A stretch of 64,000 nt of DNA from Gammaproteobacteria bacterium. Lineage in GTDB: Bacteria > Pseudomonadota > Gammaproteobacteria > S012-40. The position numbers and the translations under genes are program-made. This document shows positions 2,907 to 52,006 of the stretch, in pieces. The notes below the pieces were generated by a model. That model made no database searches. It was not told where the DNA came from and saw only the letters and a program-made list of their open reading frames with translations. Each line of letters opens with the position of its first letter. Within the stretch, counting starts at the first letter, position 1. The stretch is from assembly GCA_919902765.1 (NCBI GenBank), contig CAKKRP010000028.1, positions 6,743 through 70,742 on the forward strand. Direction: 5' to 3'.

Positions 2907-3125
2907 AGCCCCACCCTCCATTGTTTTATTTAAAAATATTTAAAAACCCAATCATACGTTAATATACCCCATGCAGACAAGGCGGGGCTTGAAAATTTTC
3001 AAAAAATCGGTATGTTTGCGCGTGGTGGAACGGCAATGAAACTTTTTTTCGGTTTTGGGTCTAACCGCGCATCGTCGGTAAGGCTAGATGATAGACGGGC
3101 GTCATTTCAAAAAAGAGGTAATACT

Positions 3126-4052
3126 ATGGTGGAAGTACAGCAACTTACCAAACGCTTCGGATCGCGCTTGGCGGTCGATCAACTCAGTTTTAATGTGGGG
3201 CCAGGTGAGGTGTTAGGATTTTTAGGCCCCAATGGCGCGGGCAAATCGACGACCATGAAAATGGTCACGGGATTTTTGCAACCCACTTCGGGCACTGCGC
3301 GGGTCAATGGATTCGATATTTTAGAACAGCCTTTGGACGCCAAAAAAGCCATGGGTTATTTGCCGGAAGGCGCGCCCGCCTACGGCGATATGACAGTACA
3401 GCAATTTTTGAATTTTATCGCCGACATACGTGGATTGAGCGGCGATTTTAAACGCGCACGTATGCAACGCGTCGTCGAAGACGTACACCTCACGCAAGTA
3501 TTGGCGCAACGTATAGATACCTTGTCTAAAGGTTTTCGGCGACGCGTGGGTTTGGCGCAGGCGATTATACATGATCCAAAGGTATTGATTCTCGATGAAC
3601 CTACGGACGGTTTAGATCCCAATCAAAAGCATGAAGTACGACACCTGATACGCAATATGTCCAAAGATAAAATCATTGTAATTTCAACGCACATCCTCGA
3701 AGAAGTGGAGGCCGTGTGTACGCGCGCCATGATCATTGCGCATGGTAAACTGTTGGCGGACGGGACACCCGATGATCTCGCGGCAAAATCTCGCTATCAC
3801 GGGGCGGTGACTTTAAAACTAGCGGCGCGCGACGAGGCGGCCCGCGTATTAAAAGAATTACCCGATGTGCTCGAAGTGAAAAACGAAGATGCGTCTAATG
3901 AATTGACGGTCTTTCCGCGCCCAGGCGCGGCGGTGCTGCAAAGCGTCAGCGCCATGGTAGAACAGAAACGTTGGACGGTGCAGGCGCTTTATCAACAAAA
4001 GGGTAGGTTGGACGACGTGTTTAGACAAATTACCGGGGGGGCCGCAGCGTGA
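3126..4052 (+). CDS. ABC transporter ATP-binding protein (ABC-2 / GldA-like)
   Basis: Walker A GPNGAGKST, signature LSKGFRRRVGLAQA and Walker B ILDEPTDGLD are present. Start chosen at Met 3126 (MVEVQQLTKRFG), preceded by SD AAGAGG. The track ORF begins upstream at 3012. Confidence 0.9.
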   Translation: MVEVQQLTKRFGSRLAVDQLSFNVGPGEVLGFLGPNGAGKSTTMKMVTGFLQPTSGTARVNGFDILEQPLDAKKAMGYLPEGAPAYGDMTVQQFLNFIADIRGLSGDFKRARMQRVVEDVHLTQVLAQRIDTLSKGFRRRVGLAQAIIHDPKVLILDEPTDGLDPNQKHEVRHLIRNMSKDKIIVISTHILEEVEAVCTRAMIIAHGKLLADGTPDDLAAKSRYHGAVTLKLAARDEAARVLKELPDVLEVKNEDASNELTVFPRPGAAVLQSVSAMVEQKRWTVQALYQQKGRLDDVFRQITGGAAA

Positions 4053-4789
4053 AAAATCATCCCATTTCAATTTTGTTAAAACGTGAATTGAATAGTTATT
4101 TCGCGACGCCCTTAGCCTATGTGTTTATTGTTATTTTTCTCGCGTTGACCGGCGTTTTTACGTTTTATCTTGGCAATTTTTTTGAGCGTAATCAGGCGGA
4201 TTTAGCGCCGTTTTTCGGATTCCATCCGTGGTTGTATCTGTTTTTGATTCCAGCCATCGCCATGGGAATATGGGCCGAAGAGCGCAAGACCGGCACGATA
4301 GAATTGTTGCTGACCTTGCCGATTACGTTGTGGCAAACGGTGATCGCAAAATTTCTCGCTGCGTGGGCCTTTATCGCCATCGCCTTGGCGTGTACGTTTC
4401 CGATGTGGATTACCGTCAATTATTTGGGCGATGCGGACAACGGCGCGATATTTACCGCCTACATCGGTAGTTTATTAATGGCGGGCGGTTATTTGGCGGC
4501 CGGTATGTGCATATCCGCGCTCACACGCTCGCAGGTCATCGCATTTATCGTCAGTCTGGTCGTGTGTTTTGTCTTTGTGATGGCGGGTTTTCCGATGGTG
4601 GTCGATGTGGTGCGCGGATGGTTGCCCAATGGCATCGTCGATGCGTTAGCGGGTATGAGCTTTTTGACGCATTTTCAAGCGCTCAGCAAGGGCGTGTTGG
4701 ATCTGCGCGATGTCGTCTATTTTGTCGCCATGATCGCGGCTTGGTTGTACGCCAGCATCTTAATCATCGATCTGAAAAAGGCCGAGTAA
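4049..4789 (+). CDS. ABC-2 type transporter permease (GldF-like)
   Basis: 246 aa multi-pass hydrophobic protein, start overlapping the upstream ATPase stop (ATGA), typical of ABC-2 permeases. Confidence 0.8.
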   Translation: MKNHPISILLKRELNSYFATPLAYVFIVIFLALTGVFTFYLGNFFERNQADLAPFFGFHPWLYLFLIPAIAMGIWAEERKTGTIELLLTLPITLWQTVIAKFLAAWAFIAIALACTFPMWITVNYLGDADNGAIFTAYIGSLLMAGGYLAAGMCISALTRSQVIAFIVSLVVCFVFVMAGFPMVVDVVRGWLPNGIVDALAGMSFLTHFQALSKGVLDLRDVVYFVAMIAAWLYASILIIDLKKAE

Positions 4790-4802
4790 GGGAGTTCAGC
4801 AA

Positions 4803-6689
4803 ATGAAAAATTGGTTAGTGAATCGTAAGTTTACCTCTGGCAGCGGACTGGCCGTCATCGCCGTGTTATTGGTGGCCAGCGTCGCCCTCAGCAATGTCTT
4901 ATTGCGCGGCGTGCGCTTGGATTTAACGGAAAATTCTGTGTATACCTTATCCACGGGTACGCAATCTATCTTGTCAAAAATCGATGAACCGATAGATGTA
5001 TATTTCTTTTTCTCGAAATCAGGTTTGCAAGGTATCCCGCAGTTGGCGAGTTATGGCGCGCATGTGCGCGAAACCTTGGAAGAAATGGCGGGTGCGGCGG
5101 GGGGTAAATTGCGCCTCCATGTGATCGATCCCGAAGCGTTTTCGGACGATGAAGATCGCGCGGCAAAATTCGGTGTACAGCCTGTGCCCATAAGTAATGG
5201 CGGTGAAAATATTTATTTCGGTATGGCCGCGACCAACGCGGTGGGCAAGACAGAGGCGATTGCCTTTTTTCAACCGGAACGCGAAAGCACGTTGGAATAC
5301 GACGTGACCAAGGCGATTTACGAATTGAGCCGGGCCAAAAAGCCGGTCTTGGGCGTATTAAGTTCGCTGGAAATGCAGGGTGGTTTCGATGCTCAGCGTA
5401 TGGCGCCTAAACCGGGGTGGGTGGTGTATGACCAATTGCGTCAGATGTTTGAACTACGCAATTTGGAGAAAGAGGTAAAGGAAATCGCCAGGGATATCGA
5501 TTTATTATTGCTCGTCCATCCGGTGGCGCTGTCGCCGGCAACGAGCTATGCGATAGATCAATATGTCATGAATGGCGGCAAGGTGCTGGCCTTTATCGAT
5601 CCATACGCCGAGTCTGCCGCTGCCGGCCCCAACGGCATGCCCAATCAGGGCGCGCAAACACAGTCTAATCCGACTGAACTGCTGAAATCGTGGGGCTTGA
5701 GTATGCGCGCGGATAGCGTGCTGGGCGATTCAACCTACGCCTTACAAGTGGGTGTCGGTGCCATGGGTCCACCCGTCTATCATTATGCGATGTTAGGCAT
5801 CCCGTCGGAAGGTATGCACAAAACCGACGTAGCGACGCGTAATCTCAAACGCATTAACGTGGCCTTCGTTGGCATATTGGACACGCTGAAGGACAGCGGA
5901 ATGGAAGTGACGCCCTTGCTGACTTCGAGTAAACAGGCCGCACCTTTACCTGGCTTCCGCGTACAAATGGGCGGTAATCCTGCGCAATTGCAACAGGGTT
6001 TTGTGCCGACAAACGAACAATACACCTTTGCGGCGCGCAGTCATGGTACGGCGAAATCGGCATTTGCAAGCGGACCACCGGCAGGCGTGGCGGTGAGTGG
6101 TAAGCACTTGGCCCAATCTGCAACGCCAGTGGATGTAGTGGTTGTTGCCGATACGGATATGTTGACGGATAGATTCTGGGTGCGCGTACAGGACTTTTTC
6201 GGCCAACGCTTGATGTCGCCGTGGGCCAGTAACGGAGATTTTATCATCAACGTGGCGGATAACTTAGCGGGTAGCAGCGATTTGATCGGTATACGCGGTC
6301 GTGCGGCATTTACACGCCCGTTTGATAAGTTGGATCAACTAAAACGCAATGCGGATAAGAGTTTTCGTACAAAAGAACAGGAATTGCAGACCCGGTTGCG
6401 TGAAACGGAGAGCAAACTGGCGGCAATGGAACGCAGCAAGGGCGATGGCAATGCGTCTTTGTTGTCGGCGGAGCAGCAGCGTGAAATTCAAAATTTCCGT
6501 AACGAGAAATTAAAAATCCGCAAAGAATTGCGTGATGTGCGGCATCAATTAGACCGCGATATCGAACGCCTGGGTTCTATTTTGAAATTTATCAATATTA
6601 TCTTGGTCCCGGCCTTGCTGGTGGTGGGCGTCATAGTGTGGCTGCGTATGCAGCGCCGTAAAGAAGTCAGCGTTGGAGGTGCGGCATGA
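4803..6689 (+). CDS. ABC transporter auxiliary component, GldG-like (ABC_transp_aux family)
   Basis: 628 aa with an N-terminal TM anchor, a large periplasmic domain, and a C-terminal coiled-coil plus TM (ILVPALLVVGVIVWL). Its architecture and position after the GldA/GldF-like genes match GldG-family proteins. Confidence 0.7.
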   Translation: MKNWLVNRKFTSGSGLAVIAVLLVASVALSNVLLRGVRLDLTENSVYTLSTGTQSILSKIDEPIDVYFFFSKSGLQGIPQLASYGAHVRETLEEMAGAAGGKLRLHVIDPEAFSDDEDRAAKFGVQPVPISNGGENIYFGMAATNAVGKTEAIAFFQPERESTLEYDVTKAIYELSRAKKPVLGVLSSLEMQGGFDAQRMAPKPGWVVYDQLRQMFELRNLEKEVKEIARDIDLLLLVHPVALSPATSYAIDQYVMNGGKVLAFIDPYAESAAAGPNGMPNQGAQTQSNPTELLKSWGLSMRADSVLGDSTYALQVGVGAMGPPVYHYAMLGIPSEGMHKTDVATRNLKRINVAFVGILDTLKDSGMEVTPLLTSSKQAAPLPGFRVQMGGNPAQLQQGFVPTNEQYTFAARSHGTAKSAFASGPPAGVAVSGKHLAQSATPVDVVVVADTDMLTDRFWVRVQDFFGQRLMSPWASNGDFIINVADNLAGSSDLIGIRGRAAFTRPFDKLDQLKRNADKSFRTKEQELQTRLRETESKLAAMERSKGDGNASLLSAEQQREIQNFRNEKLKIRKELRDVRHQLDRDIERLGSILKFINIILVPALLVVGVIVWLRMQRRKEVSVGGAA

Positions 6690-7783
6690 AAACACAACAA
6701 TGGGGTGCATTGGCGTGGATCACCTTGGTCGTCGTTGCGCTGGGAGTGGGTTTGAGTATGTGGCGCGATCATGACGCCAGCGCCAAACCTAAGCCCGCGT
6801 TTCCACAATTGGAGTCACAGTTGAACGAGGTTGCGAAAATATCGGTGCGCGCCGCAAATAATGTCGCGGTGACTTTAGAACGCACAGACGCTGGGTGGGT
6901 GGTGGCCGACAAATCGCGTTATCCGGCTGACAGCGGCATGTTGCGCAAAGAGTTATTGCAACTTGCGCATCTGGAATTGTTAGAGGCCAAGACCAAAAAG
7001 CCGGAAAACTACGCGCAATTGGGCGTACAGGCCTTGGATCAAGCCGGCAGCGAAGCGATAGAGGTGCAGGTATTTGGCGCCAATAACGCAATGGTCGCGC
7101 ATGCCTTAGTCGGCAAGAACGCAAATGGCGGCGCGTATTTACGTTTGGGACACGATGCACAAACCTGGTTAGCGTCGGCACGTCCCGCATTTGCCACCAA
7201 GCCTGAGGATTGGTTGGAAAAAGAAATCGCCAACATCGATGCGCAACGCCTGAGCAAGGTGTCGGTACAGGCCAATGGTGCGAGCTATACCATTGAAAAA
7301 TCGACAGGCAACGATACACCCGTATTGAAAGACGTGCCCAAAGGGCGAGCCGTCAAAGACAGCGAAGTACGGCGCATCATCGGTGGTTTGAGTAATTTGC
7401 GATTTGAAAATGTGTTGCCCGCAGCACAAGCGCCGAGCGCCAAATCGGCGGTCAAAATGCGTTTTGAGACTGCCGATGGCTTGGTTGTGGAGACTATGAC
7501 GTATAAGGATGCGGATAAGATTTATACCACCTTTACGCCTAGTTTTGCCGCAAAGCCGCCAACGGCAGCGCCCGCGCCATCCAAAGATGGCCAGGCGCCG
7601 GTAGTAACGCCTACGCCCTCAAATAACACTGCGGTTGTGGCGAACGCACAAGGTGAAAGCGAAAAACTCAAACAGCGATTAAATGGTTGGGTCTATGTGA
7701 TACCGGCGCATCAGGCAGACGTCTTGATGTTAAATCGCGACGCCTTATTGGAACCCATGGTGAAAACCAAGGCCAAAAAATAG
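6686..7783 (+). CDS. DUF4340-like protein (conserved partner of GldG-type ABC systems)
   Basis: 365 aa with an N-terminal TM/signal anchor (WGALAWITLVVVALGVGL), translationally coupled to the gldG-like gene. This family typically follows GldG. Confidence 0.55.
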   Translation: MKTQQWGALAWITLVVVALGVGLSMWRDHDASAKPKPAFPQLESQLNEVAKISVRAANNVAVTLERTDAGWVVADKSRYPADSGMLRKELLQLAHLELLEAKTKKPENYAQLGVQALDQAGSEAIEVQVFGANNAMVAHALVGKNANGGAYLRLGHDAQTWLASARPAFATKPEDWLEKEIANIDAQRLSKVSVQANGASYTIEKSTGNDTPVLKDVPKGRAVKDSEVRRIIGGLSNLRFENVLPAAQAPSAKSAVKMRFETADGLVVETMTYKDADKIYTTFTPSFAAKPPTAAPAPSKDGQAPVVTPTPSNNTAVVANAQGESEKLKQRLNGWVYVIPAHQADVLMLNRDALLEPMVKTKAKK

Positions 7784-8006: not shown

Positions 8007-10370
8007 ATGGAGATAGGCGATATGACAAACCCTGGCAGCAATAGCATCGCAAACGCGACCGTTGTGGACAATCTAGATGTGCTAAAAGATATATTGGAGT
8101 TCGCTCCCATCAATATTATGATCGCCGATGCCAATGAAAATATCATTTTCGTCAATAAACGCTCGCGCGATATTTTGCAAAATGTAGAGGGTGAATTGGC
8201 GAAATACCTGCCGGGCTTTAGCGCCAATCAAGTGTTAGGCGGCAGCATACATCGCTATCACAAAGACCCCGGTGCGATAAAAAGAATACTGCATGGATTG
8301 CAACCCGGTATGACACGTAAAGGCGAGATCGCGCCCGGTCATTTTGTCTTTGAACATGAAACACGTGTCTTAGTAGATCGTGCGGGGCAACGCCTCGGCT
8401 ATGTGGTGCAGTGGCATGATGTCACGGAAAAACGCCAAAAAGAAGAACAAGCGCAGCGTTTACAAACGGCGGTCGATGGTGCGCAATTGGCGATGATGAC
8501 CATTAATCGCGAACTGATAGTCACTTATGCAAATGAAGAAACCAAGAAATTAATGAAGAAAAACGCCGATGTGTTGTCGGGGTTGTATCGCGGATTCGAT
8601 GCCACTAAATTGTTGGGCACTTGTATCGATATTTTCCATAAAAATCCCGCGCATCAACGGCGATTATTGGAGGACGCAAGAAATTTGCCTTTTGAAACCG
8701 ACATCCAAGTCGGCCCATTGACATTTCATATTCGCGCGTCCGCCATCCACAACTTGGCGGGCCAATATGTGGGCAACACCTTAGAGTGGAATGATGTCAC
8801 CGAGTTGCGGCGCCGCGAAGTGGATGTAAAACGCTTGCAGTCCGCTATAGATGGCTCAAAAACCGCTTTGATGCTGTGCGACAAAGACCTCAAGATCACC
8901 TTTGCGAATCCTGCGGTGGTTGATTTGTTACGCCACCGGCAAAATCAATTGTCTAAATTATTTCCAGGATTTGATCCCAACAAATTGCTCGGCGTGTGTA
9001 TCGATGGGTTTCATAAAAACCCTGCGCATCAACGTGCGTTGTTATCGAATACCGCGCGTTTACCCTATGAAGGCCACATAGAATTACCAGGTATGGAATT
9101 TGTTGTGAACGCCACCGCTATACTCGATGGGCAAGGCAATTACATGGGTAATATGGTCGAATGGCAGGATGTGACGGAACAGAAAGATGCGGAACGGCGC
9201 GTACAAGAACTGATTGACGCGGCGATTAAAGGGCAATTAGATAAACGTATAGAATCTGAACGCTACCAAGGGTTTTTAAAAAAAATTGGAGAGGGCATAA
9301 ATCACTTGATAGATGCCGTCGTACAACCGCTTAAAGACGGCACGCAGGTCATGCAGTCGCTTGCCGAGGGTGACTTAACCAATACCATGGACGGCCATTA
9401 CGAAGGCGATTACGCGACGTTGCGTGACGCTCTAAATAAGTCGGTCGAGAATTTAGTGAATATGGTCGGTCAGATACGTAATTCTTCTTCCAGCATCACT
9501 GCCGGATCTTCCGAGATTGCGCAAGGCAACGCCGATCTAAGCCAACGCACGGAGCAACAAGCATCGTCATTGGAAGAAACCGCATCCAGCATGGAAGAGC
9601 TGACGAGCACGGTCAAACAAAACGCCGACAATGCGCGCCAAGCGAATCAGTTGGCGGCAGGCGCACGCGGACAGGCGGATAAAGGCCAAGAGGTAGTGCG
9701 CAATGCCATTACGGCAATGTCGGAGATCAGCGGGGCGAGTAAAAAAATTGCGGAAATTATCGGCGTTATCGACGAAATCGCCTTTCAAACCAATTTGCTG
9801 GCGTTGAATGCCGCTGTGGAGGCGGCGCGCGCGGGTGAGCAAGGGCGCGGATTCGCGGTTGTCGCCGCCGAGGTGAGAAATCTTGCGCAACGTAGCGCGG
9901 GTGCGGCTAAGGAAATCAAGAATTTGATTAAGGATAGCGTTGATAAGGTAAGCGAAGGGCAAAAGCTCGTGGATGCGTCCGGTAAGACTTTGGACGAAAT
10001 TGTCATCGCGGTGAAAAAGGTAAGCGATATTATTGCCGAGATTGCGGCCGCCAGCCAAGAACAATCAGCGGGAATCGAGCAAATTAATAAAGCCATTACC
10101 CAATTGGATGAAGTCACTCAGCAAAATGCCGCGTTGGTTGAAGAGGCTGCGGCGGCGAGTGAATCCATGGAGGATCAAGCACAGAATTTACAACAAATGA
10201 TCGCGTTTTTTAAAGTCGATGAACAACAGAACAATTCCCAAAATATGGCCCATGACCCTGCGGTGCGCGGCAAACGTGACGCTACGCGACCAGCAAGTCG
10301 TGCGCCTCGGCAACCCACTGCTGCGACGCCAAGATCGTCTACTAATGGCGGTGATGATGAATGGCGGTAA
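8007..10370 (+). CDS. Soluble methyl-accepting chemotaxis protein with three tandem PAS domains, HAMP and MCP signalling domain
   Basis: Three repeated PAS-like modules (…[24 protein letters not shown]… / …[24 protein letters not shown]…) with no TM segment. The C-terminus carries the highly conserved MCP hairpin ([27 protein letters not shown]… [44 protein letters not shown]). Confidence 0.9.
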
Positions 10371-12474: not shown

Positions 12475-14280
12475 TCAATGCCCACGATACATTTCCGCGA
12501 TTTCTGCCGCGAATTTTTGCAAAATTTGCGCGCGACGTATTTTCAGCGACGGGGTCATCAACTCATTTTCCACCGTCCATGCATCCAATGTTAACGTAAC
12601 GCGACGGATTTGCGCGTAGCCGGGGAATTGATTGAGACGCGCGCCTAGGCGTTGCAAAATCGCTTGATGTGTACCTTCATTACGCAGCATTTCGGGGGTA
12701 CTGGATATGCCTAGTTTTTTAGCGAATTCCGCCCACAAAGCGGCATTCAGGACGATGATTGCCGTTAAGTAAGGTTTGTTTTCTCCAATCACCAAAACTT
12801 GCTCAAACATTGGATCGAGTGAGATCGCCATTTCCATATCGACGGGGGGCACCTTTTCACCATTTGATAAGACCAGGATTTCCTTAATGCGCCCAGTGAC
12901 ATAAATATGTCCGCGCTCGCCAATGCGGGCGAGGTCGCCGGTATGCAGCCATCCGTCTGTGTCTATGGTGTTGCGCGTGGCCTCTTGCATATTCCAGTAT
13001 CCCATCATCACGCTGGGGTTGCGTGTCAGCAACTCACCGTTGGCGGCGACTTTTACTTCGCTGCCTGGCCGCGGCGGGCCTATACTCGCGGGAATATTGT
13101 CCTGCATAGGATTAACGCTACTGCCCGGGCTGGACTCGGTGAGGCCATACCCCTGACAAATAGGCAAGCCTAGTCCAATAAAGGTGCGCGCGATCGGCGT
13201 CGAAAGGGCCGAGCCGCCGCTGATCGACATGCGCATGCGGCCGCCTAATTTGGCGAGGACTTTTTTTGCCACTAACGCATTCAAGAGCGGCCACATCAAC
13301 AGTTTGGGGTGCCACGCGCAACGTTGCTGTTGGTGTTCAAATCGATACCATCCGACATTGACCGCCGCCTGAAATAAGGCGCGCGCGATAGGCGATTTCT
13401 CTTGCATTTGGGTTTGAATTTTGGCGTATACACGCTCGAAAATTCGCGGCACCGTGATCAGTACCGTTGGTTTCACGCTGATTAAATCTTCACCCAATTC
13501 CGCAACAGAACGCGCAAACGCGACGCTCGCACCGGTCATCATAGGGATGTAATATCCTACGGTGCGTTCTAGCGTGTGTGACAACGGTAAAAAAGACAAA
13601 AATATATCATTGTTATATACCGCAACGGCGCTAATTCCCGCGTAGGCGTTGAAAAGAATATTACGATGACTCAGCATCACCCCTTTGGGGCGGCCAGTGG
13701 TGCCGGAGGTATAGACGATAGTGGCAAGATCATCGGCCTTGATGTCGGGGTGCGACGTAGCATTCCCCGTAGCCCCCACGAGCCAGGCGTCTAGGGTGGA
13801 CACGCGGGGCTCCTGCGGACTGTTCAACGGCGCTACGCTGACCACACGGAACGTGGCTGGAAATTCCCGCATGACGGGCTGCACGTTTTGCCATTGATCG
13901 TTGTTTTCGATAAGTAACAACTTGATTTGGGCATCATTTACGATATAAGAAATATTATCAGGTCTATCATTGGGATAGAGCGGTACTACGACTAGGCCTA
14001 GGCTCAGCGCAGCCTGCTCAAAATGGACCCAGACCGGACAATTTCGCAGCATGACGCCAACGCGGTCGCCTGGGGCGAGCTTTTCCAGGGCCAAGGCGGC
14101 GCGATAGCGATCTACCTGATTGGCCGCCTCTTGCCACGTCAGGCTGCACCAGGCGCGGGTGGCGCGATCAAAATGGCGGTAGGCGAGGGCCTGAGGGCTG
14201 CGGGTAACGCGCAAACTAAACAAGCCTGAAAGGGTGAGTGCTTGCTGTGGGGTAATTGCGTCGATCTTAGATTCAGCCAT
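12475..14280 (-). CDS. AMP-dependent synthetase/ligase (long-chain acyl-CoA synthetase-like)
   Basis: AMP-binding motif YTSGTTGRPKGVMLSHRNI. Start placed at MAESKIDAIT (ATG 14280) with a GAGGA SD. The track ORF extends to 14382. Confidence 0.85.
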   Translation of the reverse strand: MAESKIDAITPQQALTLSGLFSLRVTRSPQALAYRHFDRATRAWCSLTWQEAANQVDRYRAALALEKLAPGDRVGVMLRNCPVWVHFEQAALSLGLVVVPLYPNDRPDNISYIVNDAQIKLLLIENNDQWQNVQPVMREFPATFRVVSVAPLNSPQEPRVSTLDAWLVGATGNATSHPDIKADDLATIVYTSGTTGRPKGVMLSHRNILFNAYAGISAVAVYNNDIFLSFLPLSHTLERTVGYYIPMMTGASVAFARSVAELGEDLISVKPTVLITVPRIFERVYAKIQTQMQEKSPIARALFQAAVNVGWYRFEHQQQRCAWHPKLLMWPLLNALVAKKVLAKLGGRMRMSISGGSALSTPIARTFIGLGLPICQGYGLTESSPGSSVNPMQDNIPASIGPPRPGSEVKVAANGELLTRNPSVMMGYWNMQEATRNTIDTDGWLHTGDLARIGERGHIYVTGRIKEILVLSNGEKVPPVDMEMAISLDPMFEQVLVIGENKPYLTAIIVLNAALWAEFAKKLGISSTPEMLRNEGTHQAILQRLGARLNQFPGYAQIRRVTLTLDAWTVENELMTPSLKIRRAQILQKFAAEIAEMYRGH

Positions 14281-14551
14281 GGGGTATTTATCCTCAATTC
14301 CATAGAGCAATATAGGGGTATCGGTAAAAATGGCGCGCTTATGTAGTATTATGAACGATATGTGTTTAAGTGGGGAGCGCAATCCATTGATATTTAATAT
14401 CTTAGAATACTCAAGTTAGCGCATAAAAGGGAGAGGGTAAACACCTTTAATTATTCCATAACAATAATCTGGTATTAATGCCAGCCAATAATATTGGTAT
14501 TACTAAGTGAGTTTAGATTTAGTAAAATATTGGTGGTGATTTGGGATTACA

Positions 14552-16735
14552 ATGGCACAGGTAAAACTGGTCTATAACGCAGATAGGGGTTGGATGATTC
14601 CCATAACCGGAGAAGGGGTAGATAGTAGGCTAGGCGGCGCTCAGTCGAGGATCTGTTATGTCGATGATTCGCGCACCTCCACCTATGTTACAACCAAGGT
14701 TTTGAAGCAATACGGCTACGCGGTTGAACATTTCGAGCGTAGCGATGCTGCGTTAGAGGTTTTGCTGGATCAACATTTTGATCTGTTGTTGTTGGATTTT
14801 GCCGCCTCTGGCGCAGAGGGGTTGGGCGGTGAACACCTAATCCGCATCATACGCGGCAGCGGACATCCACGCAGTGCAGTGTTGCCGATTATCGTATTGG
14901 TGGGGAATAACGATCAAGCGGCGGTAGGTCAACTGAAACAATCCGGCGCCAACGACGTCATCATGAAACCGCTCAAAGGCAAAGAGCTGGACCAGGTGAT
15001 ACGACGCCTAGTCGCAAACTACCATAACCATCTTGGAATGGCCCCTGCGCATAAGGCCGCCGTAACGCCCGCGATAGATAGCGCAAACATCAAATCCAGC
15101 GGTGGGGCGGCATCAACGCGTCCGAAAAAAGTATATTCCGTATTAGAGTTGCAGCAGCGTTTTGGCGAGATTCCGACGGGCAAGACGCAAGAACATTCTG
15201 CTGCGCCGCCTACCCCGGAAACCTCACCTACGTCAGCAGCCCCAGCGGCGCCAAGGTCAACGCAAGATGTTCCGATTTTAGATAATGCCGTGCGCGGCAG
15301 CGAAGAGCGTGGCGCAGACATTACGCAAACAGTCCCCACGCTACAAACGCTGGCGACGATTGTAGATGCGCGTATTGTGGAAAAACTGTCGGCGGCGGTA
15401 GCCCAAAAATCTGAGCAATTGGCGGTCATAGATGCGCGCGGCGAGGTTATCCATGAAGCCGAGACTAAAATGCTACCACTGGCCAAACCTGCTGCGCAAG
15501 CACAAAAAAATAACACACCTGTTACGGATGCTACAACTCCTTTAGACAGTGGGTTGATGGCATTGCTGGAAAAGTTAGAGCACGGTCAAGACCGCACCGC
15601 CCCCAATCCATTTCAAAGTTCGTATATGCCGCCCAAGCTGGATTGGATGGCGCCCGCAAAAAATGTGCTTTCATGGAAGCTGATTGCGATAGGCGTGGGG
15701 ATAGGCGTTGCGATATTCGGGTATCAAAAATGGACTACGCGCGAATCGGCGGCATTCAATGTCGTAGTCGCGGAACGGGGTGCCATTTATGAATCGATTT
15801 CCGTTCCGGCCAAGGTGGTCAGCAAACGCATCGCCGAAATCACACCTTATTCTGCTGGGCAACTGATCAAGATCGAAGTTAAGGAAGGCGATAGCGTCGC
15901 CACCGGGCGGGTCTTAGCGGTATTGGATGACAGGGATGCGCAGAGTAACGTCAAACGCACGCAAGCGACGTTGTTGAGTATGGAAGAAGAAGTCAGCCGT
16001 ACGAACAAAAATCTACAGCGTCTACAACGCGCCCTCGAATTGGGCGCTGTTTCACGCCAACGCGTAGAAGACGCGGAAGGCGAGTGGCGCGCCGCGACCG
16101 CCCGTCAGAGTATTACGGAAGAGGAATTACGCTCTACTAAATTGGCCTTGGAACGGTTGCAAATCGTCGCCCCTTTTGATGGGGTAGTGACCTCTATTAT
16201 CGCGAATTCCGGCAAATGGATCGCGCCACCGGAAATTATCATGACGGTGGTGGATATCGCCGCCCAAGAAGTGATTGCGAAAGTGGATGCCGCCGATGCG
16301 CCGGCGATACAAATCGGCCATGAAGTGATGCTATCTAACGAGTCCTTTGCCGGGAAGAAATGGAAAGAAAAGGTCTCGCGCGTTGCGGCGACCACCAAGA
16401 AAGATAATGCGCCGAATTCGATAGATGTCGTTATTACGCTGAGCGCCAGCGCGCCCGCGTTACGGGTAGGCCAACAAGTGGATGCAGAAATTCGTTTGCG
16501 TGGCAAGTCGGATGTGGTAAAGATCCCTGTGCATGCCTTGATCAACAAAAGCGGATCGCCGATGGTGCCGGTGTTGCAGGGAGACATCGTGCGTCTCGTA
16601 CCGGTGGTGACCGGGATAGAAGATATTACCTCCGTAGAAATAGTGCGTGGGATAGAAGACGGCGAACAAATCGTTATAACAAACGGCAAAGAAGTCAATG
16701 ACGGCCAACACATACGTGTGTTGGGCAATAGTTAA
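14552..16735 (+). CDS. Response-regulator receiver domain fused to HlyD-family membrane fusion protein (periplasmic adaptor)
   Basis: The N-terminus has a CheY-like REC (ICYVDDS…LLLLDF…IIVLVG…IMKPL). A long Ala/Pro/Thr-rich linker and a TM helix (LSWKLIAIGVGIGVAIFGY) follow. The C-terminal region has HlyD/MacA-like biotin-lipoyl and beta-barrel regions (AKVVSKRIAEITPYSAGQLIKIEVKEGDSVATGRVLAVLD…). Confidence 0.75.
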   Translation: MAQVKLVYNADRGWMIPITGEGVDSRLGGAQSRICYVDDSRTSTYVTTKVLKQYGYAVEHFERSDAALEVLLDQHFDLLLLDFAASGAEGLGGEHLIRIIRGSGHPRSAVLPIIVLVGNNDQAAVGQLKQSGANDVIMKPLKGKELDQVIRRLVANYHNHLGMAPAHKAAVTPAIDSANIKSSGGAASTRPKKVYSVLELQQRFGEIPTGKTQEHSAAPPTPETSPTSAAPAAPRSTQDVPILDNAVRGSEERGADITQTVPTLQTLATIVDARIVEKLSAAVAQKSEQLAVIDARGEVIHEAETKMLPLAKPAAQAQKNNTPVTDATTPLDSGLMALLEKLEHGQDRTAPNPFQSSYMPPKLDWMAPAKNVLSWKLIAIGVGIGVAIFGYQKWTTRESAAFNVVVAERGAIYESISVPAKVVSKRIAEITPYSAGQLIKIEVKEGDSVATGRVLAVLDDRDAQSNVKRTQATLLSMEEEVSRTNKNLQRLQRALELGAVSRQRVEDAEGEWRAATARQSITEEELRSTKLALERLQIVAPFDGVVTSIIANSGKWIAPPEIIMTVVDIAAQEVIAKVDAADAPAIQIGHEVMLSNESFAGKKWKEKVSRVAATTKKDNAPNSIDVVITLSASAPALRVGQQVDAEIRLRGKSDVVKIPVHALINKSGSPMVPVLQGDIVRLVPVVTGIEDITSVEIVRGIEDGEQIVITNGKEVNDGQHIRVLGNS

Positions 16736-16804
16736 TTTTAGTTCCAGGTTCCCTTAAACAAATTTATCTCGAATCCGCTGTGCGACAAGGGTCAGTGTGA
16801 GGAT

Positions 16805-17530
16805 ATGGCGTTTTCTATTCCCAATTTTTCGAGCAACAAAAGCAATGTTCGTCCGATCATACAATTGGAAGGCGTTTCTAAATCATACACCATTGAGCAT
16901 GCCAGCATCGTCGCATTAAACGAAGTTTCGCTGACCATTTACCCCGGTGAATTTGTTGCGGTGACCGGCGCGTCAGGCTCCGGCAAATCGACGTTGATGG
17001 CGCTCATTGGATGCCTGGACCGGCCCGATACCGGCGATATAAACCTGGACGGCGAACCGGTAGGCCACATCAACGATGAGCGGATAGCCACACTACGCAA
17101 TAGAAGAATTGGATTTATTTTCCAGTCGTTTAATTTGATACCACGGTTGACTACGCTGCAAAATGTTGAATTACCAATGGTTTATGCAGGTACTCCACCG
17201 TTGAAAAGGCGTCGGCATGCGATGATTGCGCTGCAAATTGTGGGTATGCAACAACGCGCGCAACATACCCCCACGCAGTTATCCGGCGGGCAGCAACAAC
17301 GTGTCGCGATAGCGCGCGCGCTGGTCAATAACCCCGATATCATACTAGCGGATGAACCGACCGGTAGTTTGGATGCCGGGAATGTCGATGAGGTGATGAA
17401 GTTGCTGTCGCAGCTCAATAAAAACGGCAAAACCATCGTCATAGTCACGCACGATATGCAAGTGGCGAATTACGCGCAGCGCACCCTGTATATGCGCGAC
17501 GGCACTATTATATCGGACATTAGGCGATAA
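16805..17530 (+). CDS. MacB/LolD-type ABC transporter ATP-binding protein
   Basis: Walker [11 protein letters not shown]-loop, signature [15 protein letters not shown] and Walker [12 protein letters not shown] are present. Confidence 0.9.
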
Positions 17531-17532
17531 AC

Positions 17533-18795
17533 GTGCGTACTGCGGCGGATTGGAAAGAATACCTGGGTGAATCCTTAGCGCAAGCGATGTTGGCGTTAAA
17601 GGACAATCGTCAACGCACGTTGATGAGCATTATCGGCGTAGCCGTGGGCATCGCAGCGGTGATGTCGGTAGGCATTGTCAGCCAAGGGGGCAGGCAATAT
17701 ATTTTCAGTGAGTTGGAGAGCTTTGGTCTCAAAACGTTATGGGTTTATCGAGATCGTGACCAGAAAAATTCCTTAGACCTGGCGCGCGAAGGCAGTGGGA
17801 TCACCAATGAAGACTATGCAGCGCTGTTGACCGGCGGTTGTTGCAGTACGGTAGCGCGTTTTAGCGCCGTAGTATATCCCATGGATTGGCAGGCCTCCAT
17901 CAAATTGGGGAGCTTGCAGGTGCGGGCCAATGTAGAGGGTGTGGATACCGAATATCTCAATATTAATAATGACCAAGTGAGTCAAGGGCGTCCGTTTTCC
18001 ACTGAGGATATCAAACGTCGTCAAGCCGTGGTGCTGATCGGCGAGTCGGTACGTAAGTCCTTGTTTAACAATCATCCCTTACCGGTAGGCAAAACCTTGC
18101 GGATAGGCGAAACGCAATTTACTGTGATCGGATTGCTCAAGGAAAAACGCCGGGATTTTTTAACCAGCATGGGCGCAACACAGGAATTTGACGTGAACAA
18201 TCGCGTGTTGATTCCGTATACGCTGTTTCAGCAAATGTTGGGCATACAAGAAATCCAAACGTTACAGGCAGAGGTGTTGGATCAAAAAAAAATTAATCCC
18301 GGGATCGCTGAAATACAGGATTTTTTGTCCAAACAACATCGCGGGCGCTATAAATATAGGGCCGACAGTATGCTCGAATGGACCCAAACCGCGAATCGCA
18401 TTGTCTATGGCATTACGTTTATCGGCGTCTTAGCCGCATCTGTGGCGTTGTTTGTGGGCGGGATAGGGATAATGAATATCATGTCGACCGCCGTGATAGA
18501 ACGCACACGCGAAATCGGTATACGGATGGCGATAGGCGCGAAACGCAAAGACATTTTGTGGCAGTTCCTCATCGAGGCGGCATTGATAAGTCTGATCGGC
18601 GGCCTGCTGGGATTGTTACTCGGTGCGGGCGTGTTGGTGATACTCGCGCGCTGGACGGGTTTTCCGCTGCAAGCGGATGCCGTGTTGATTTTATTGGCCT
18701 TGTTAGTCGCAGTCGGCGTGGGGTTGGCCTCAGGTTTTTATCCGGCGCGGCGCGCCGCTGGGATGAATCCAGTGGATGCCTTGCGCTACGAGTAA
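17533..18795 (+). CDS. ABC transporter permease, FtsX/MacB-like
   Basis: 420 aa with an N-terminal TM, a large periplasmic domain and a C-terminal FtsX-type 3-TM bundle (GIGIMNIMSTAVIERTREIGIRMAIGA). Translationally coupled to the ATPase. Confidence 0.85.
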   Translation: MRTAADWKEYLGESLAQAMLALKDNRQRTLMSIIGVAVGIAAVMSVGIVSQGGRQYIFSELESFGLKTLWVYRDRDQKNSLDLAREGSGITNEDYAALLTGGCCSTVARFSAVVYPMDWQASIKLGSLQVRANVEGVDTEYLNINNDQVSQGRPFSTEDIKRRQAVVLIGESVRKSLFNNHPLPVGKTLRIGETQFTVIGLLKEKRRDFLTSMGATQEFDVNNRVLIPYTLFQQMLGIQEIQTLQAEVLDQKKINPGIAEIQDFLSKQHRGRYKYRADSMLEWTQTANRIVYGITFIGVLAASVALFVGGIGIMNIMSTAVIERTREIGIRMAIGAKRKDILWQFLIEAALISLIGGLLGLLLGAGVLVILARWTGFPLQADAVLILLALLVAVGVGLASGFYPARRAAGMNPVDALRYE

Positions 18796-18811
18796 GGTCG
18801 AAATTTTTTAG

Positions 18812-19570
18812 TTATGGCGAAACCGCAATATTGGTCTCCACCAGTGCGATTTCATCGTAACTATACATTTTGGCGCTCGCGCTATCGAGAAAACTCATGC
18901 TGGCTTTTACCATGCCCAGCGGCGGATACACCCAGACAGTGCCATTATAAAGCGGAAAATTCGCATTGAAATTCTGTTTAAATTTTATGCGATAACATTC
19001 AAAAAAGCCGAATGGCGTTTCGACCACCTCGGTAGTTTCAATATAGTAATCCATAGATCCACCGGTGATTTTATTGCTACATAGTTGATCGCGACAAGTC
19101 ACAAATGAAAAAACGGTGGTCGGTTGCGTTGCGCCTACGGTCAAATTTGTCGGATACAGGGTTATTCCATACTTGTCGTTGTTATCCACGAGATAGTTAA
19201 CCGCAGTGCCGCCTTCTTGCTGTAGCGCGAACAAGACGCTACGGTCTTTTTCTTGTTGAATGTAATAAAACATCGTGCGTGGCGGTTGATTAAAGGGCGT
19301 GATGGAATTGCTGATACGCATCAGATTGGCGGGGACTTGCGAGGATGGCGAGGGCGGCGGGAGTGGCACGTTTTGCCAGCGTGTGATCCAATCTCCTGAA
19401 AAGCTGCTGCCGTCACCATTAAATGCGAGAAATTGGTAGCGCAAATAGTCGCCATTGCTATAGGCGCGCCACGTGGTATTCTTTAAATTAAAATGTTGTT
19501 TATCGCGTGGCGGGGCGCACGCCACCATCAATGTGCAGGCGCAGAGTATCCAAAGTAAACGTTTCATCAT
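18812..19570 (-). CDS. Hypothetical lipoprotein/secreted protein
   Basis: Signal peptide with a lipobox-like LMVAC. No recognisable domain. Confidence 0.45.
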   Translation of the reverse strand: MMKRLLWILCACTLMVACAPPRDKQHFNLKNTTWRAYSNGDYLRYQFLAFNGDGSSFSGDWITRWQNVPLPPPSPSSQVPANLMRISNSITPFNQPPRTMFYYIQQEKDRSVLFALQQEGGTAVNYLVDNNDKYGITLYPTNLTVGATQPTTVFSFVTCRDQLCSNKITGGSMDYYIETTEVVETPFGFFECYRIKFKQNFNANFPLYNGTVWVYPPLGMVKASMSFLDSASAKMYSYDEIALVETNIAVSP

Positions 19571-19652
19571 ATGAAAACTAGTATAATATCATGTTATTAA
19601 GATTGCATTTGGGCCGTCAACACGCCCGCTGAAAGGTAATTATAACGCGCAA

Positions 19653-20223
19653 TTAGCGCGGCTCCCGATTTTTTTTCGTACGCAATAACACATACAGGGC
19701 ACCGGTGCCGCCGTCTTGCGCGCGCGCAGAACTATAGGCCAGCACATCGTCGCGCCGTTGTAGCCACAGGCCGACCTTGCCCTTTAAGATAGGTCGTTTA
19801 TGCGGCAGACCCATTGCCTTTACCATGAATAATACGCAGCGTGCGCAGTCCGCGTGCCTGGCACGCGTGCAGAAATGTACTCAAGGCGTTGGCGGCCGCC
19901 ACGACAGTTAAGCCATGTAAATCCAATTCCGCCTGGACCGCATACTGGCCGCGTCGCAGTTTGCGCATCACCGTCGGTGGAACTTCAGCGCGCCGAAAGC
20001 TCAATGCATCGCCCGTATCTAAGGTTTCCTCGTCGAGGCTGAACGGTGCCATAGATTCTTGCATCACCCGCTGTTCATCCTGCAACCTTTGGTGGGGAAT
20101 GGGGGCAGGGGGGACGCGTTGGTTCTCCGGCGCGGGGAAATCCAAGCGACGCACATCGGCCACCGCATCCCTAAACAAGGTGCGGTCTTCGGTCGTAACG
20201 ATGGGCGGCTTTTTGCGTCTCAT
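19653..20223 (-). pseudogene. Smr-domain protein (SmrB/YfcN-like) disrupted by a frameshift
   Basis: The N-terminal part (…LDLHGLTVVAAANALSTFLHACQARGLRTLRIIHGKGNGSAA*) stops at TAA 19798-19800. The conserved Smr C-terminus continues in the +1 frame to TAA at 19653-19655 (KRPILKGKVGLWLQRRDDVLAYSSARAQDGGTGALYVLLRTKKNREPR). The break lies at a GGG run. Confidence 0.6.
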
Positions 20224-38844: not shown

Positions 38845-38921
<77 letters not shown>

Positions 38922-40076: not shown

Positions 40077-41609
40077 TCACTCCAACCATACTCGATAGCT
40101 ACGTTCGCCTAAACGCGTATCAAATACTACTTGCGGCATCAGTCCGGTATCACGGATGCGCTGTAACACAGCCTTTAAATCCAGCTCCTTGCTCGTGCGC
40201 AAATGTGTCAATACATCTTCTGGTATCAACTTTTCTAAATCTAACGCCGCCTCTGCCGGCATGCTGACCGACACCACCGGCTGATTGCGCTCTAAGACTT
40301 TAACTTTGAGGTCTTTGGCCAAATGACTAAGGGTGGGGGCGCTCCGAGTTTCAGGTACCACGGGCAATTCAAAAGTCTGCGCGTGCGCAAGCAGATTGTT
40401 GCCTACCGTTTGTTGTAAAATGTCCCACCAAGAGCCGTAAAAATGTAAGGCTTGCAGTTGATTGACAACGCCTTGAAAGGCGCGTAATAGCAATAATAAA
40501 TTCGCCGGTCCCGCCGACCTGAACCACCAGCGTTTGTCGCCCAGAAGGGTGGCAAGGTCTTCACTCAATCGCCAAAAACTCAAATGGAACGGGGCATTTT
40601 CTAAAAAAGGCCGCAACAATATCTTACTTAACATCGGCAATTGTTGCCCAATATAAGACAGTTTTTTGCCGTCAAAACCCATCGCAGCAAAACATGCCAT
40701 GGGAGATACATCTTGTTTGTGGTGCAGGGCGACAATAAGCTTTAACAATGCCAGCCGCGCCTGCTCGCCGATGGGCGCGGTACAACCGAAATCCAACAAT
40801 ACGACTTCGGGTGCGCCGTTGCGGTAACGATAAAACGAATTTCCTTGATGTGGATCGGCATGAACCTCGCCTGCCGCGAAGACGCTTTTAAACAGCGTTT
40901 TTAACAAGGTCACGCCGACTTCATGCTGCAGATGATCCGGCCATTTTAATACTTCAGTGAACTTTACACCGGACTCCCAAGATTGCACTAATACGCGATC
41001 CGTTGCATATTGTGGAAACACCTTGGGGATATGCAGACCTTGAACGCGAACGCGGTCAATGAAATACTGCTGACGAGCGGCCTCGCCGCGATAATCCAAT
41101 TCTCTGTCCATATTTTGCTTCAACTCGGTTTTATACGCGTCTAGGTCGAAGCCCCAGGTTTTGACAGGCCCTAAGCCTGGCAATAAACCCGCCAAACGCA
41201 TTTCCGCTGCTATAGAATCCGCAATGTCCGGATAGCGCACCTTCACCGCGACTTCAGTGCCGTCCAACAGCTTGGCGTGGTGTACTTGCCCCAGGGACGC
41301 CGCTGCGGCAGCCTCGTCGAATTCGGAAAATATTTCATCCAATGGCTTGCCCATGGATGTTTCAATATAGGGACCGATCAACTCCAGCGCTAGCGGTTCG
41401 ATATTGTCTAGCAATGGACGCAAGGGCGTATCATCGTCCTGCACCAATAACTGCCCGACCTTCATGGTTACGCCGCGCGCATCGGCAAAAAGATTATATA
41501 AGGCCTTTTTCGCCAGTGTACGTTCAACCTCAGTGGTCGCCGATTTTAATTTCGCGGCATTCCATCCGATGCGCAGAATTTTTAAACTGCGTTTTGCGGT
41601 TTCTAACAT
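40077..41609 (-). CDS. ABC1/UbiB-family atypical protein kinase
   Basis: ABC1 motifs are present (…ASLGQVHHAKLLDGTEVAVKVRYPDI…, …HADPHQGN…, LLDFG). 510 aa. Confidence 0.85.
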   Translation of the reverse strand: MLETAKRSLKILRIGWNAAKLKSATTEVERTLAKKALYNLFADARGVTMKVGQLLVQDDDTPLRPLLDNIEPLALELIGPYIETSMGKPLDEIFSEFDEAAAAASLGQVHHAKLLDGTEVAVKVRYPDIADSIAAEMRLAGLLPGLGPVKTWGFDLDAYKTELKQNMDRELDYRGEAARQQYFIDRVRVQGLHIPKVFPQYATDRVLVQSWESGVKFTEVLKWPDHLQHEVGVTLLKTLFKSVFAAGEVHADPHQGNSFYRYRNGAPEVVLLDFGCTAPIGEQARLALLKLIVALHHKQDVSPMACFAAMGFDGKKLSYIGQQLPMLSKILLRPFLENAPFHLSFWRLSEDLATLLGDKRWWFRSAGPANLLLLLRAFQGVVNQLQALHFYGSWWDILQQTVGNNLLAHAQTFELPVVPETRSAPTLSHLAKDLKVKVLERNQPVVSVSMPAEAALDLEKLIPEDVLTHLRTSKELDLKAVLQRIRDTGLMPQVVFDTRLGERSYRVWLE

Positions 41610-50716: not shown

Positions 50717-52006
50717 GTGTCGAGAGCAGTTATGAATTTTCGTGAATTTAAACAAGCGGGCCATTGGCCCACCTTACTAGCCGCGTTTTTATATTTTGAT
50801 GTGAGTTTTATGGTGTGGGTGGTATTAGGCCCGCTGTCACTTTATGTCAGTCAAGATTTGGCGTTGAGTATTGAAGAAAAATTTACGATAGTGGCGGTGC
50901 CGATACTCGCAGGTGCATTGTTGCGTATGCCACTGGGTTTTCTCGCAGATCACATAGGGCCAAAACGCACCGGTATTGCAGCGCAGTCTATCGTTATTGC
51001 AGGAATGGCCTACGCCTGGATTTTTGGTTTGCATTCCAAGGTCGAGGTGGAATTATTGGGTATTGTTTTAGGTGTGGCAGGCGCAAGTTTCGCAGTAGCG
51101 CTGCCACAAGCCTCGCGGTGGTATCCGCCTAAATATCAAGGGGCGGTCATGGGTATCGCGGGTGCCGGAAATATGGGCGTCGTGCTCGATTCGATGTTTG
51201 TACCGTGGATGGCGGAACATTGGGGTTGGCAATCCGTGTTTGGTATATTGATTATCCCGTTAGCAATAGTACTCGGCCTATATAGTTTGATGGCCAAAGA
51301 TGCGCCTCAGTCACGCGCGCCGGTATCGTTAAAAAATTATGCTGTAGTGTTGCAAGATCGCGATACTTGGTGGTTTATGTTTTTTTATTCCATCACGTTC
51401 GGTGGCTTCGTGGGCCTAGGGAATGCGTTGCCGATTTATTTCACCCATTGGTATCACGCATCTGGAATCACGGCGGGGCTATTGGCCGCCTGCGTGGTAC
51501 TGGCGGGTTCGATGGCGCGGCCCGTCGGTGGGGTCGTCGCGGATCGTTTTGGCGGTATACGTACGCTACAGATTTTATTTGTGTTCATCGCATGCACCTA
51601 TGGTGCAGTAGCGCTGCTGCCGCAAGGACCTGCGCCCACGATGCTGGATGGCGCAAAGGTTGCGGGCTGGACGTTAGCGGAATTGCCCGCGATTGCATGG
51701 ATTGCAATGACAATATTTTTATTGGGCGCGACCGCGTTAGGGATGGGCAACGGATCGGTGTTTCAATTGGTGCCGTTGCGATTTCGCAACGAAATCGGCG
51801 TCATGACGGGCCTGGTCGGTGCCGCAGGCGGAATCGGAGGCTTTTTTCTGGCCAAGTCCTTAGGACTATCGAAAGGCATAACCGGGGGATTTACGGCCGG
51901 ATTTTCGATATTTGCCGGGCTCGCAATCATCGGGCTCGTTGGCTTGGTAGTCGTTAAAACGCGTTGGCGCACTACGTGGGGCGCGGTGTCAGGTGCGCGC
52001 GTGTGA
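50717..52006 (+). CDS. narK: MFS nitrate/nitrite transporter (NNP family, NarK/NasA-like)
   Basis: 12-TM MFS protein with glycine-rich nitrate/nitrite porter signature regions (…GIAGAGNMGVV…, …GLVGAAGGIGGFF…). First gene of the nitrate assimilation cluster. Confidence 0.85.
   Translation: MSRAVMNFREFKQAGHWPTLLAAFLYFDVSFMVWVVLGPLSLYVSQDLALSIEEKFTIVAVPILAGALLRMPLGFLADHIGPKRTGIAAQSIVIAGMAYAWIFGLHSKVEVELLGIVLGVAGASFAVALPQASRWYPPKYQGAVMGIAGAGNMGVVLDSMFVPWMAEHWGWQSVFGILIIPLAIVLGLYSLMAKDAPQSRAPVSLKNYAVVLQDRDTWWFMFFYSITFGGFVGLGNALPIYFTHWYHASGITAGLLAACVVLAGSMARPVGGVVADRFGGIRTLQILFVFIACTYGAVALLPQGPAPTMLDGAKVAGWTLAELPAIAWIAMTIFLLGATALGMGNGSVFQLVPLRFRNEIGVMTGLVGAAGGIGGFFLAKSLGLSKGITGGFTAGFSIFAGLAIIGLVGLVVVKTRWRTTWGAVSGARV

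Follow-up and report, generated by a model that had tools for sequence, protein, structure and literature searches.

A Response-Regulator Receiver Domain Fused to a MacA-Like Periplasmic Adaptor in a MacAB-Like Three-Gene Exporter of Uncultured Gammaproteobacteria

INTRODUCTION

Two-component control of tripartite efflux and secretion pumps is thought to be almost entirely transcriptional. Substrate recognition and complex assembly in type I secretion both require the cytoplasmic N termini of the transmembrane (TM)-anchored adaptors, and comparable regions, which have been little studied, exist in the adaptors of ATP-binding cassette (ABC) and major facilitator superfamily (MFS) pumps (PMC8277102). 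Here, we describe a three-gene operon whose adaptor protein carries a response-regulator receiver (REC) domain at its N terminus. The operon lies in a 64,000-nucleotide stretch (hereafter, the window) of a metagenome-assembled genome (MAG) of a Gammaproteobacteria bacterium (GenBank assembly GCA_919902765.1; contig CAKKRP010000028.1, positions 6,743 to 70,742). The adaptor, MacB, and REC kinds were already known; the fusion itself represents an undescribed output type among response regulators and an undescribed type among adaptors. We propose, with moderate confidence, that the operon encodes a signal-gated, MacAB-like (type VII ABC) envelope exporter, with the tethered receiver of its adaptor as the regulatory input.

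RESULTS AND DISCUSSION

Anatomy of the fusion protein and its operon

According to the ORF list of the window (ORF, open reading frame), the operon comprises three co-directional ORFs on the forward strand: (i) the fusion gene (14552 to 16735; 727 amino acids), with Pfam matches to REC, HlyD_D23, and HlyD_3; (ii) a MacB-type ABC ATPase gene (16805 to 17530; 241 amino acids; ABC_tran, E value of 9e-35), encoding a polypeptide of its own; and (iii) a MacB-type permease gene (17533 to 18795; 420 amino acids), whose product comprises TM1, a periplasmic core domain, and three FtsX TM helices. The REC domain (14642 to 15031; residues 31 to 160) was delimited by Pfam, by its AlphaFold2 fold, and by residue conservation. 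The match to Response_reg (PF00072) spans residues 34 to 150 (E value of 2.2e-14; 54 bits versus a cut-off of 30.2), and a model computed with AlphaFold2 on the family alignment predicts a (beta-alpha)5 fold of five strands and five helices for residues 33 to 160, with a predicted local distance difference test (pLDDT) score of ~80.

The receiver is followed by a low-complexity linker rich in Ala, Pro, Thr, and Ser (15032 to 15673; residues 161 to 374), in which residues 165 to 375 are predicted to be disordered (pLDDT of <50), and by a single TM anchor helix (15674 to 15736; residues 375 to 395). The AlphaFold2 confidence of this helix is low (pLDDT of 50 to 70), and it overlaps the top Kyte-Doolittle 19-mer of the protein, which starts at residue 372. 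As there is no second TM helix, the only possible topology has the receiver in the cytoplasm and the adaptor in the periplasm. The adaptor body (15737 to 16732; residues 396 to 727) consists of a lipoyl domain, an alpha-hairpin, a beta-barrel, and a membrane-proximal domain. In the model, residues 400 to 723 have a pLDDT of ~90 and show beta-rich domains and two hairpin helices (residues 461 to 496 and 502 to 534).

The family assignment of the adaptor is supported by matches to HlyD_D23 (PF16576; residues 424 to 618; E value of 9.6e-13; 48.3 bits versus 30), to HlyD_3 (PF13437; residues 538 to 640; E value of 1.5e-11; 45.4 bits versus 22.2), and to the NCBIfam model TIGR01730 (RND_mfp; 177.4 bits versus a cut-off of 94.9). 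Residues 401 to 713 align end to end with Escherichia coli MacA (3fpp/5nik; E value of 2e-17), with two gaps of 7 residues each, both in the coiled-coil hairpin. The score against the MacA equivalog NF008606 was 78 bits for a cut-off of 342, and the protein is thus MacA-like rather than a MacA ortholog. The motifs of the ATPase are intact (i.e., Walker A, the signature LSGGQQQR, Walker B ILADEPT, and the H-loop VTHD), and the permease matches MacB_PCD (residues 29 to 236; E value of 1e-31) and FtsX (residues 300 to 413; E value of 6e-23). On the MacB equivalog NF007826 (648 positions), which is the best NCBIfam match of the ATPase, the ATPase covers positions 3 to 224 and the permease covers positions 253 to 646. 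The two proteins scored 260 and 211 bits, respectively, against a cut-off of 966, the nucleotide-binding domain and the permease being in two ORFs. By these alignments, the ATPase and the permease are a split MacB and the system is MacAB-like, not MacAB.

A first-pass annotation, made from the letters of the window, had described this anatomy, and the succession of REC, a linker of ~215 amino acids, one TM helix, a MacA/HlyD-type adaptor, and a split MacB is borne out by Pfam, NCBIfam, and AlphaFold2. In the domain search that it had suggested, PF00072, PF16576, and PF13437 all scored above their cut-offs.

The REC-adaptor fusion defines a conserved family

The REC and adaptor domains are encoded in one uninterrupted frame of 678 to 999 codons in all 24 family loci (22 distinct contigs), and the split into separate genes that the first-pass annotation had considered for orthologs was found in none of them. 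When a single genome of each species was scanned, 19 loci were recovered, all from MAGs (Gammaproteobacteria, Ectothiorhodospiraceae, Thiohalomonadales, and Chromatiales) and none from an isolate. A word-index protein search returned 11 90%-identity clusters with REC and adaptor (699 to 973 amino acids), all from metagenomes or gammaproteobacterial MAGs; this count is an underestimate and was superseded by an exhaustive profile search of 1.84 billion protein representatives. Among the best 150 matches of the profile search, there were 39 REC-adaptor proteins, 16 REC-REC-adaptor proteins, one adaptor with three RECs, two with four, and one with six; the rest were REC-less adaptors of ~356 amino acids and fragments. 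In a neighbor-joining tree of the adaptor domains, which is crude and carries no support values, the REC-bearing proteins form one block separate from the REC-less adaptors, consistent with a single old fusion event. The fusion proteins are thus a sizeable, unnamed, and conserved family with one to six RECs, so far confined to uncultured Gammaproteobacteria.

The domain order had been called uncommon and uncharacterized. It is hardly rare, given dozens of cluster representatives, and the second term stands: our literature search, which did not reach subscription-only papers such as response-regulator censuses, turned up no account of a receiver joined to an adaptor. The window protein is identical to a database protein (P0001) named only "efflux RND transporter periplasmic adaptor subunit" by NCBI. 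All members of the family currently bear this label, which hides their receiver.

The multi-REC relatives include P0022 (1,572 amino acids; six RECs), P0027 and P0030 (four RECs each), P0035 (three RECs), and many two-REC proteins, as well as the loci L031, L032, and L035. Rhodanese (sulfurtransferase) domains, periplasmic by topology, were observed at the C terminus of REC-REC-TM-adaptor proteins and of some REC-less adaptors; rhodanese-ended proteins include P0060, P0064, P0072, P0074, and P0078 (~1,000 amino acids), P0094, P0108, and the product of locus L034. Another protein, P0129 (990 amino acids), and probably also P0144 and P0156, combine two receivers of the same subtype, with canonical Asp, with a C-terminal LolA_like domain and have no adaptor. 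The coupling of receivers in the cytoplasm to accessory proteins in the periplasm therefore appears to recur, and the presence of the same REC subtype on rhodanese-ended adaptors and LolA-like proteins suggests a general design in Gammaproteobacteria related to sulfur oxidizers.

The receiver is the most constrained part of the fusion protein

The REC domain of the window protein has the acidic pair (D38 and D39), the phospho-acceptor (D82), and the Lys-Pro pair (K139-P140). Among the family loci, the acidic pair is present in 23 of 23 (one more sequence, N-terminally shortened by the choice of start, does not have these columns), the phospho-acceptor Asp is present in 23 of 24, and Lys-Pro is present in all 24. 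The pattern D-D-D-T-K occurs in almost every single-REC cluster representative (~40). A UBA6920 contig (L017) is the sole single-REC family locus with Asn at the phospho-acceptor position (LLITNMNLD). Absence of the conserved Asp and Lys from an alignment was one of the findings that would have refuted the first-pass annotation, and both residues are conserved in homologs. Its description of the receiver as complete holds for these two residues and fails for the Thr switch residue, i.e., the position of CheY T87 at the end of beta4, which is normally Thr or Ser and is Val117 in the window protein. Of the five hallmarks by which REC domains are recognized in sequence, only the Thr/Ser switch residue is missing from the window REC, and the other four are present. 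This position is Thr in 22 of the 24 family loci, the loss being shared among them only by the sister sequence and closest relative, L003, which has Ala; more distant members of the window subfamily (P0039, P0046, P0050, and P0051) have kept Thr. Other single-REC representatives without Thr have Ser, which is canonical (P0062), or Ile (P0083 and P0155). At the aromatic switch position (CheY Y106), nearly all single-REC proteins and the entire window clade carry Val or Ile, and P0059 carries His.

The ratio of nonsynonymous to synonymous substitution rates (dN/dS) was 0.02 to 0.03 for REC, 0.09 to 0.29 for the linker, which also has many indels, and 0.01 to 0.14 for the TM helix plus adaptor; as synonymous divergence was saturated in most pairs, these values are based on the small number of pairs that could be used, with identities per region as support. 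In these pairs, amino acid identity was 94 to 97% for REC versus 56 to 68% for the linker, and between the window protein and L003 it was 82% for REC, 73% for TM plus adaptor, and 41% for the linker. REC is the most constrained part of the fusion protein and is under strong purifying selection. Throughout the family, the linker (200 to 460 amino acids) is rich in Ala, Ser, Pro, and Lys, hypervariable, indel rich, and predicted to be disordered. Its sole part with conservation, which is weak, is a juxtamembrane helix (residues 333 to 343; GLMALLEKLEH).

A conserved N-terminal peptide, MAQVKLVYNADRGWMIP (14552 to 14605; residues 1 to 18), precedes REC in the subfamily of the window only. The corresponding motif, M-x-HVK(L/I)(V/I)YDA(D/E)(K/R)G(V/I)(M/L)VP, was also found in P0003, P0039, P0046, P0050, and P0051, and AlphaFold2 models the peptide as a beta-hairpin with low confidence. 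Met366 was considered as a possible internal start for a REC-less adaptor and is preceded only by a weak GGA.

Proposed mechanism and points that weigh against it

In nearly all loci with downstream DNA, the ATPase and permease genes directly follow the fusion gene, and this includes the form with four RECs; it does not hold for L006 and for L034, the locus with the rhodanese-ended product. In the mechanism that we propose, the receiver would be the regulatory input of the pump, situated at its cytoplasmic face. In the ancestral and typical form, a histidine kinase would phosphorylate Asp82. Oligomerization of the adaptor would gather the phosphorylated receivers, which would then form pairs or bind to the ATPase or the juxtamembrane region, and this would alter either the assembly of adaptor and pump or the stimulation of ATP hydrolysis by the adaptor. 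Export would thereby be switched posttranslationally, through tethered binding or local concentration and not through a rigid conformational relay across the membrane. We infer control of export by phosphorylation as a reasonable reading of these sequences and nothing more.

In one clade (nine distinct contigs), the fusion gene is directly preceded on the same strand by genes for a PhoP-like regulator and a PhoQ-like kinase, and this kinase would be the obvious candidate phosphodonor there. The REC domain of the fusion protein and that of the adjacent regulator are only ~28% identical. In three of the loci (L001, L004, and L007), there is an unusually long gap of ~1.1 to 1.5 kb between the kinase gene and the fusion gene, in which only tiny ORFs on the opposite strand were called.

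Several observations weigh against phosphorylation-gated export. No histidine-kinase domain was found by Pfam in any ORF of at least 300 amino acids in the window, and a phmmer search with the family-linked kinase likewise detected no histidine kinase there. The description of the receiver as an orphan without an adjacent kinase is hence confirmed for the window by both scans, and it does not extend to the family, owing to the clade with the PhoP/PhoQ-like pair. That adjacency may itself be inherited gene order and not a functional link, because it is confined to one clade, which shares the extended synteny relA-fabA-fabB-bactofilin-cytochrome c-response regulator-histidine kinase. Among the ORFs scanned in the window and the related loci, there was no gene for an outer-membrane factor, so that the tripartite nature of the system is assumed by homology; MacAB uses an unlinked TolC, and the missing gene is uninformative in this respect. 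The window protein has Val at the conserved Thr/Ser switch position. In receiver domains in general, the residue at the CheY T87 position contributes less to phosphorylation itself than to its coupling to the output surface. Because the window lineage has lost this Thr and has no kinase nearby, the output coupling of its receiver may differ from the usual one or may in part do without phosphorylation. The relatives with two to six RECs have no phospho-acceptor Asp in nearly every REC: Ser (sometimes Asn or Gly) takes its place, giving the pattern E-D-S-T-V-K, in which Thr and Lys are kept. Judging from this replacement, a receiver module in a pump-adaptor setting can evidently work without Asp phosphorylation. 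Finally, the long, disordered, and unconserved linker makes direct mechanical coupling between REC and adaptor implausible. Since the linker is disordered and hypervariable, a rigid relay from REC to adaptor is ruled out, and a tethered-domain mechanism, as proposed above, is favored.

Alternative explanations

The replacement of Asp in the multi-REC relatives, which keep the same pump genes, can also be taken to mean that the receiver is a phosphorylation-independent interaction or oligomerization module, similar to a pseudo-receiver, which would cluster adaptors, recruit a cytoplasmic partner, or localize the pump, either in the window lineage or in the whole family. The Val and Ala at the Thr switch position in the window and L003 and the lack of a kinase nearby point in the same direction. 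However, the acidic pair, the phospho-acceptor Asp, and Lys-Pro are near invariant in the ~40 single-REC representatives and are present in the window protein, which is hard to explain without phosphoryl chemistry, and loss of the Thr generally impairs output coupling more than phosphorylation. We therefore consider such a module unlikely, either for the window lineage or for the family. The clade with the PhoP/PhoQ-like pair brings up a reverse flow of information, in which the tethered receiver would be a phosphate sink or feedback arm that competes with the PhoP-like regulator, so that the abundance or state of the pump tunes transcription in a Bce-like manner. There, the fusion gene directly follows a complete regulator-kinase pair with its own DNA-binding regulator, and the ~28% identity of the two REC domains is as expected for a branched pathway. 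Most clades, that of the window included, nevertheless have no adjacent two-component system, and a sink would need neither fusion to a periplasmic adaptor nor co-conservation with pump genes; this makes the phosphate-sink reading improbable.

An artifact, i.e., a mis-joined assembly, a frameshift, a read-through, split genes, or a chance REC-like stretch, is hinted at only by the source being a MAG and by one database gene call (P0002) that starts inside REC. It can be dismissed with near certainty. A single frame runs from REC to adaptor in the 24 loci (22 contigs), which come from different studies, and the Pfam threshold, the (beta-alpha)5 fold, and the purifying selection on the domain also refute it. 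Signal-gated export with the tethered receiver as input thus remains the reading that we prefer.

If this reading is true, the fusion protein would be the first instance of a response regulator serving as a pump component, and it would allow fast posttranslational control of export. More tentatively, and with some doubt, we suggest that tethered-receiver adaptors constitute an unrecognized class of signal-gated exporters, in which phosphorylation, or Ser-based or phosphorylation-independent signaling in the aspartate-less arrays of two to six RECs, would act on the adaptor itself and switch the assembly or the ATPase activity of the pump in a matter of seconds, with no detour through transcription. 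The family provides natural variants for this question, i.e., canonical Asp receivers, the Thr-less lineage that includes the window, and tandem arrays of two to six aspartate-less receivers. It also bears on the role of cytoplasmic N-terminal regions in the adaptors of ABC, MFS, and type I secretion systems.

Neighboring and other genes of the window

Upstream of the operon and divergent from it lies a gene for a FadD-like acyl-CoA/AMP ligase (12475 to 14382, reverse strand; AMP-binding and AMP-binding_C_3). This upstream neighbor is constant in the window subfamily: an ortholog occupies the same position in L003, L033, and L036 (74, 50, and 57% identity, respectively), even where the other neighbors differ. 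This conservation hints at a fatty-acyl-derived substrate of the exporter, or it is just retained synteny. The AT-rich region of 169 bp between the FadD-like gene and the fusion operon (14383 to 14551) presumably holds the promoters of both divergent genes. A scan of positions 14300 to 19700 for promoters and terminators gave counts no higher than in shuffled sequence, and no promoter was assigned. A search of the whole window against Rfam matched one tRNA gene only (38845 to 38918, forward strand) and detected no riboswitch upstream of the operon. In the window, L003, and L036, the genes Smr-surE-pcm-nlpD-rpoS are found close to the operon. A gene for a 252-amino-acid protein with a sub-threshold DUF3108-like match (18812 to 19570, reverse strand) converges on the permease gene; L003 has its ortholog (50% identity) at this position, where L036 has an unannotated gene of 260 amino acids.

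Elsewhere in the window, positions 3012 to 7783 encode an ABC-2 ATPase and permease and then a GldG-like accessory set of ABC_transp_aux/DUF7088 and DUF4340 proteins, after which there is a stand-alone PAS-HAMP methyl-accepting chemotaxis protein (8007 to 10370) with no che genes nearby. An MFS transporter gene (50717 to 52006) precedes a single gene in which a PP2C phosphatase domain is fused to a Ser/Thr protein kinase domain (52044 to 53759, forward strand), just upstream of genes for a NirB-like nitrite reductase and a NasA-like assimilatory nitrate reductase (53994 to 56447 and 56822 to 59473). This PP2C-kinase fusion and a UbiB/ABC1-type gene (40077 to 41609) were the only kinase-like genes among the ORFs scanned in the window, and both were set aside as unrelated.

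Comparison with known systems

The system shares with MacAB-TolC, the macrolide and enterotoxin exporter of E. coli and a type VII ABC "mechanotransmission" pump, a MacA-like adaptor with an N-terminal TM anchor and an ATPase and a permease that match the two halves of MacB. It differs in having one gene each for ATPase and permease, in that the adaptor has a cytoplasmic extension of 375 amino acids with a receiver, whereas MacA has only a short tail, and in that the hairpin is two heptads shorter and no TolC-like gene is nearby. Separate genes for adaptor, ATPase, and FtsX-type permease are also found in two MacB-like systems, DevBCA-HgdD, a cyanobacterial glycolipid exporter, and YknXYZ of Bacillus. 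DevA- and YknX-type domain matches were detected, along with a weak match to DevC (21 bits). The adaptors of DevBCA and YknXYZ, however, have no receiver domain, and the gene order of devBCA differs from that of the window operon. The substrate of the Dev system is lipid derived, and an analogous substrate is possible for the window system in view of the neighboring FadD-like gene.

In BceAB-BceRS, a transporter of the MacB/FtsX superfamily is coupled directly to two-component signaling at the protein level, as would be the case in the system described here. In the Bce system, information passes from the transporter to the kinase, and a soluble DNA-binding protein serves as the regulator, whereas the receiver of the window system is covalently part of the adaptor; the sequence relationship between the two systems is at the superfamily level only. 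The adaptors of HlyD-type type I secretion systems resemble the fusion protein in having a cytoplasmic N-terminal region that acts, or in the fusion protein would act, in the control of assembly or substrate engagement (PMC8277102). In HlyD, this region is a short, non-REC, substrate-sensing segment, and the partner is of the HlyB type; here, it is a REC domain on a long disordered tether, and the partner is of the MacB type. The multi-REC relatives resemble aspartate-less receivers. Like the binding-type response regulators CheY, CpdR, and RssB, the window REC lacks any output by DNA binding or enzymatic activity, and its presumed mode of action is binding; unlike them, it is tethered through the membrane to a part of a periplasmic machine.

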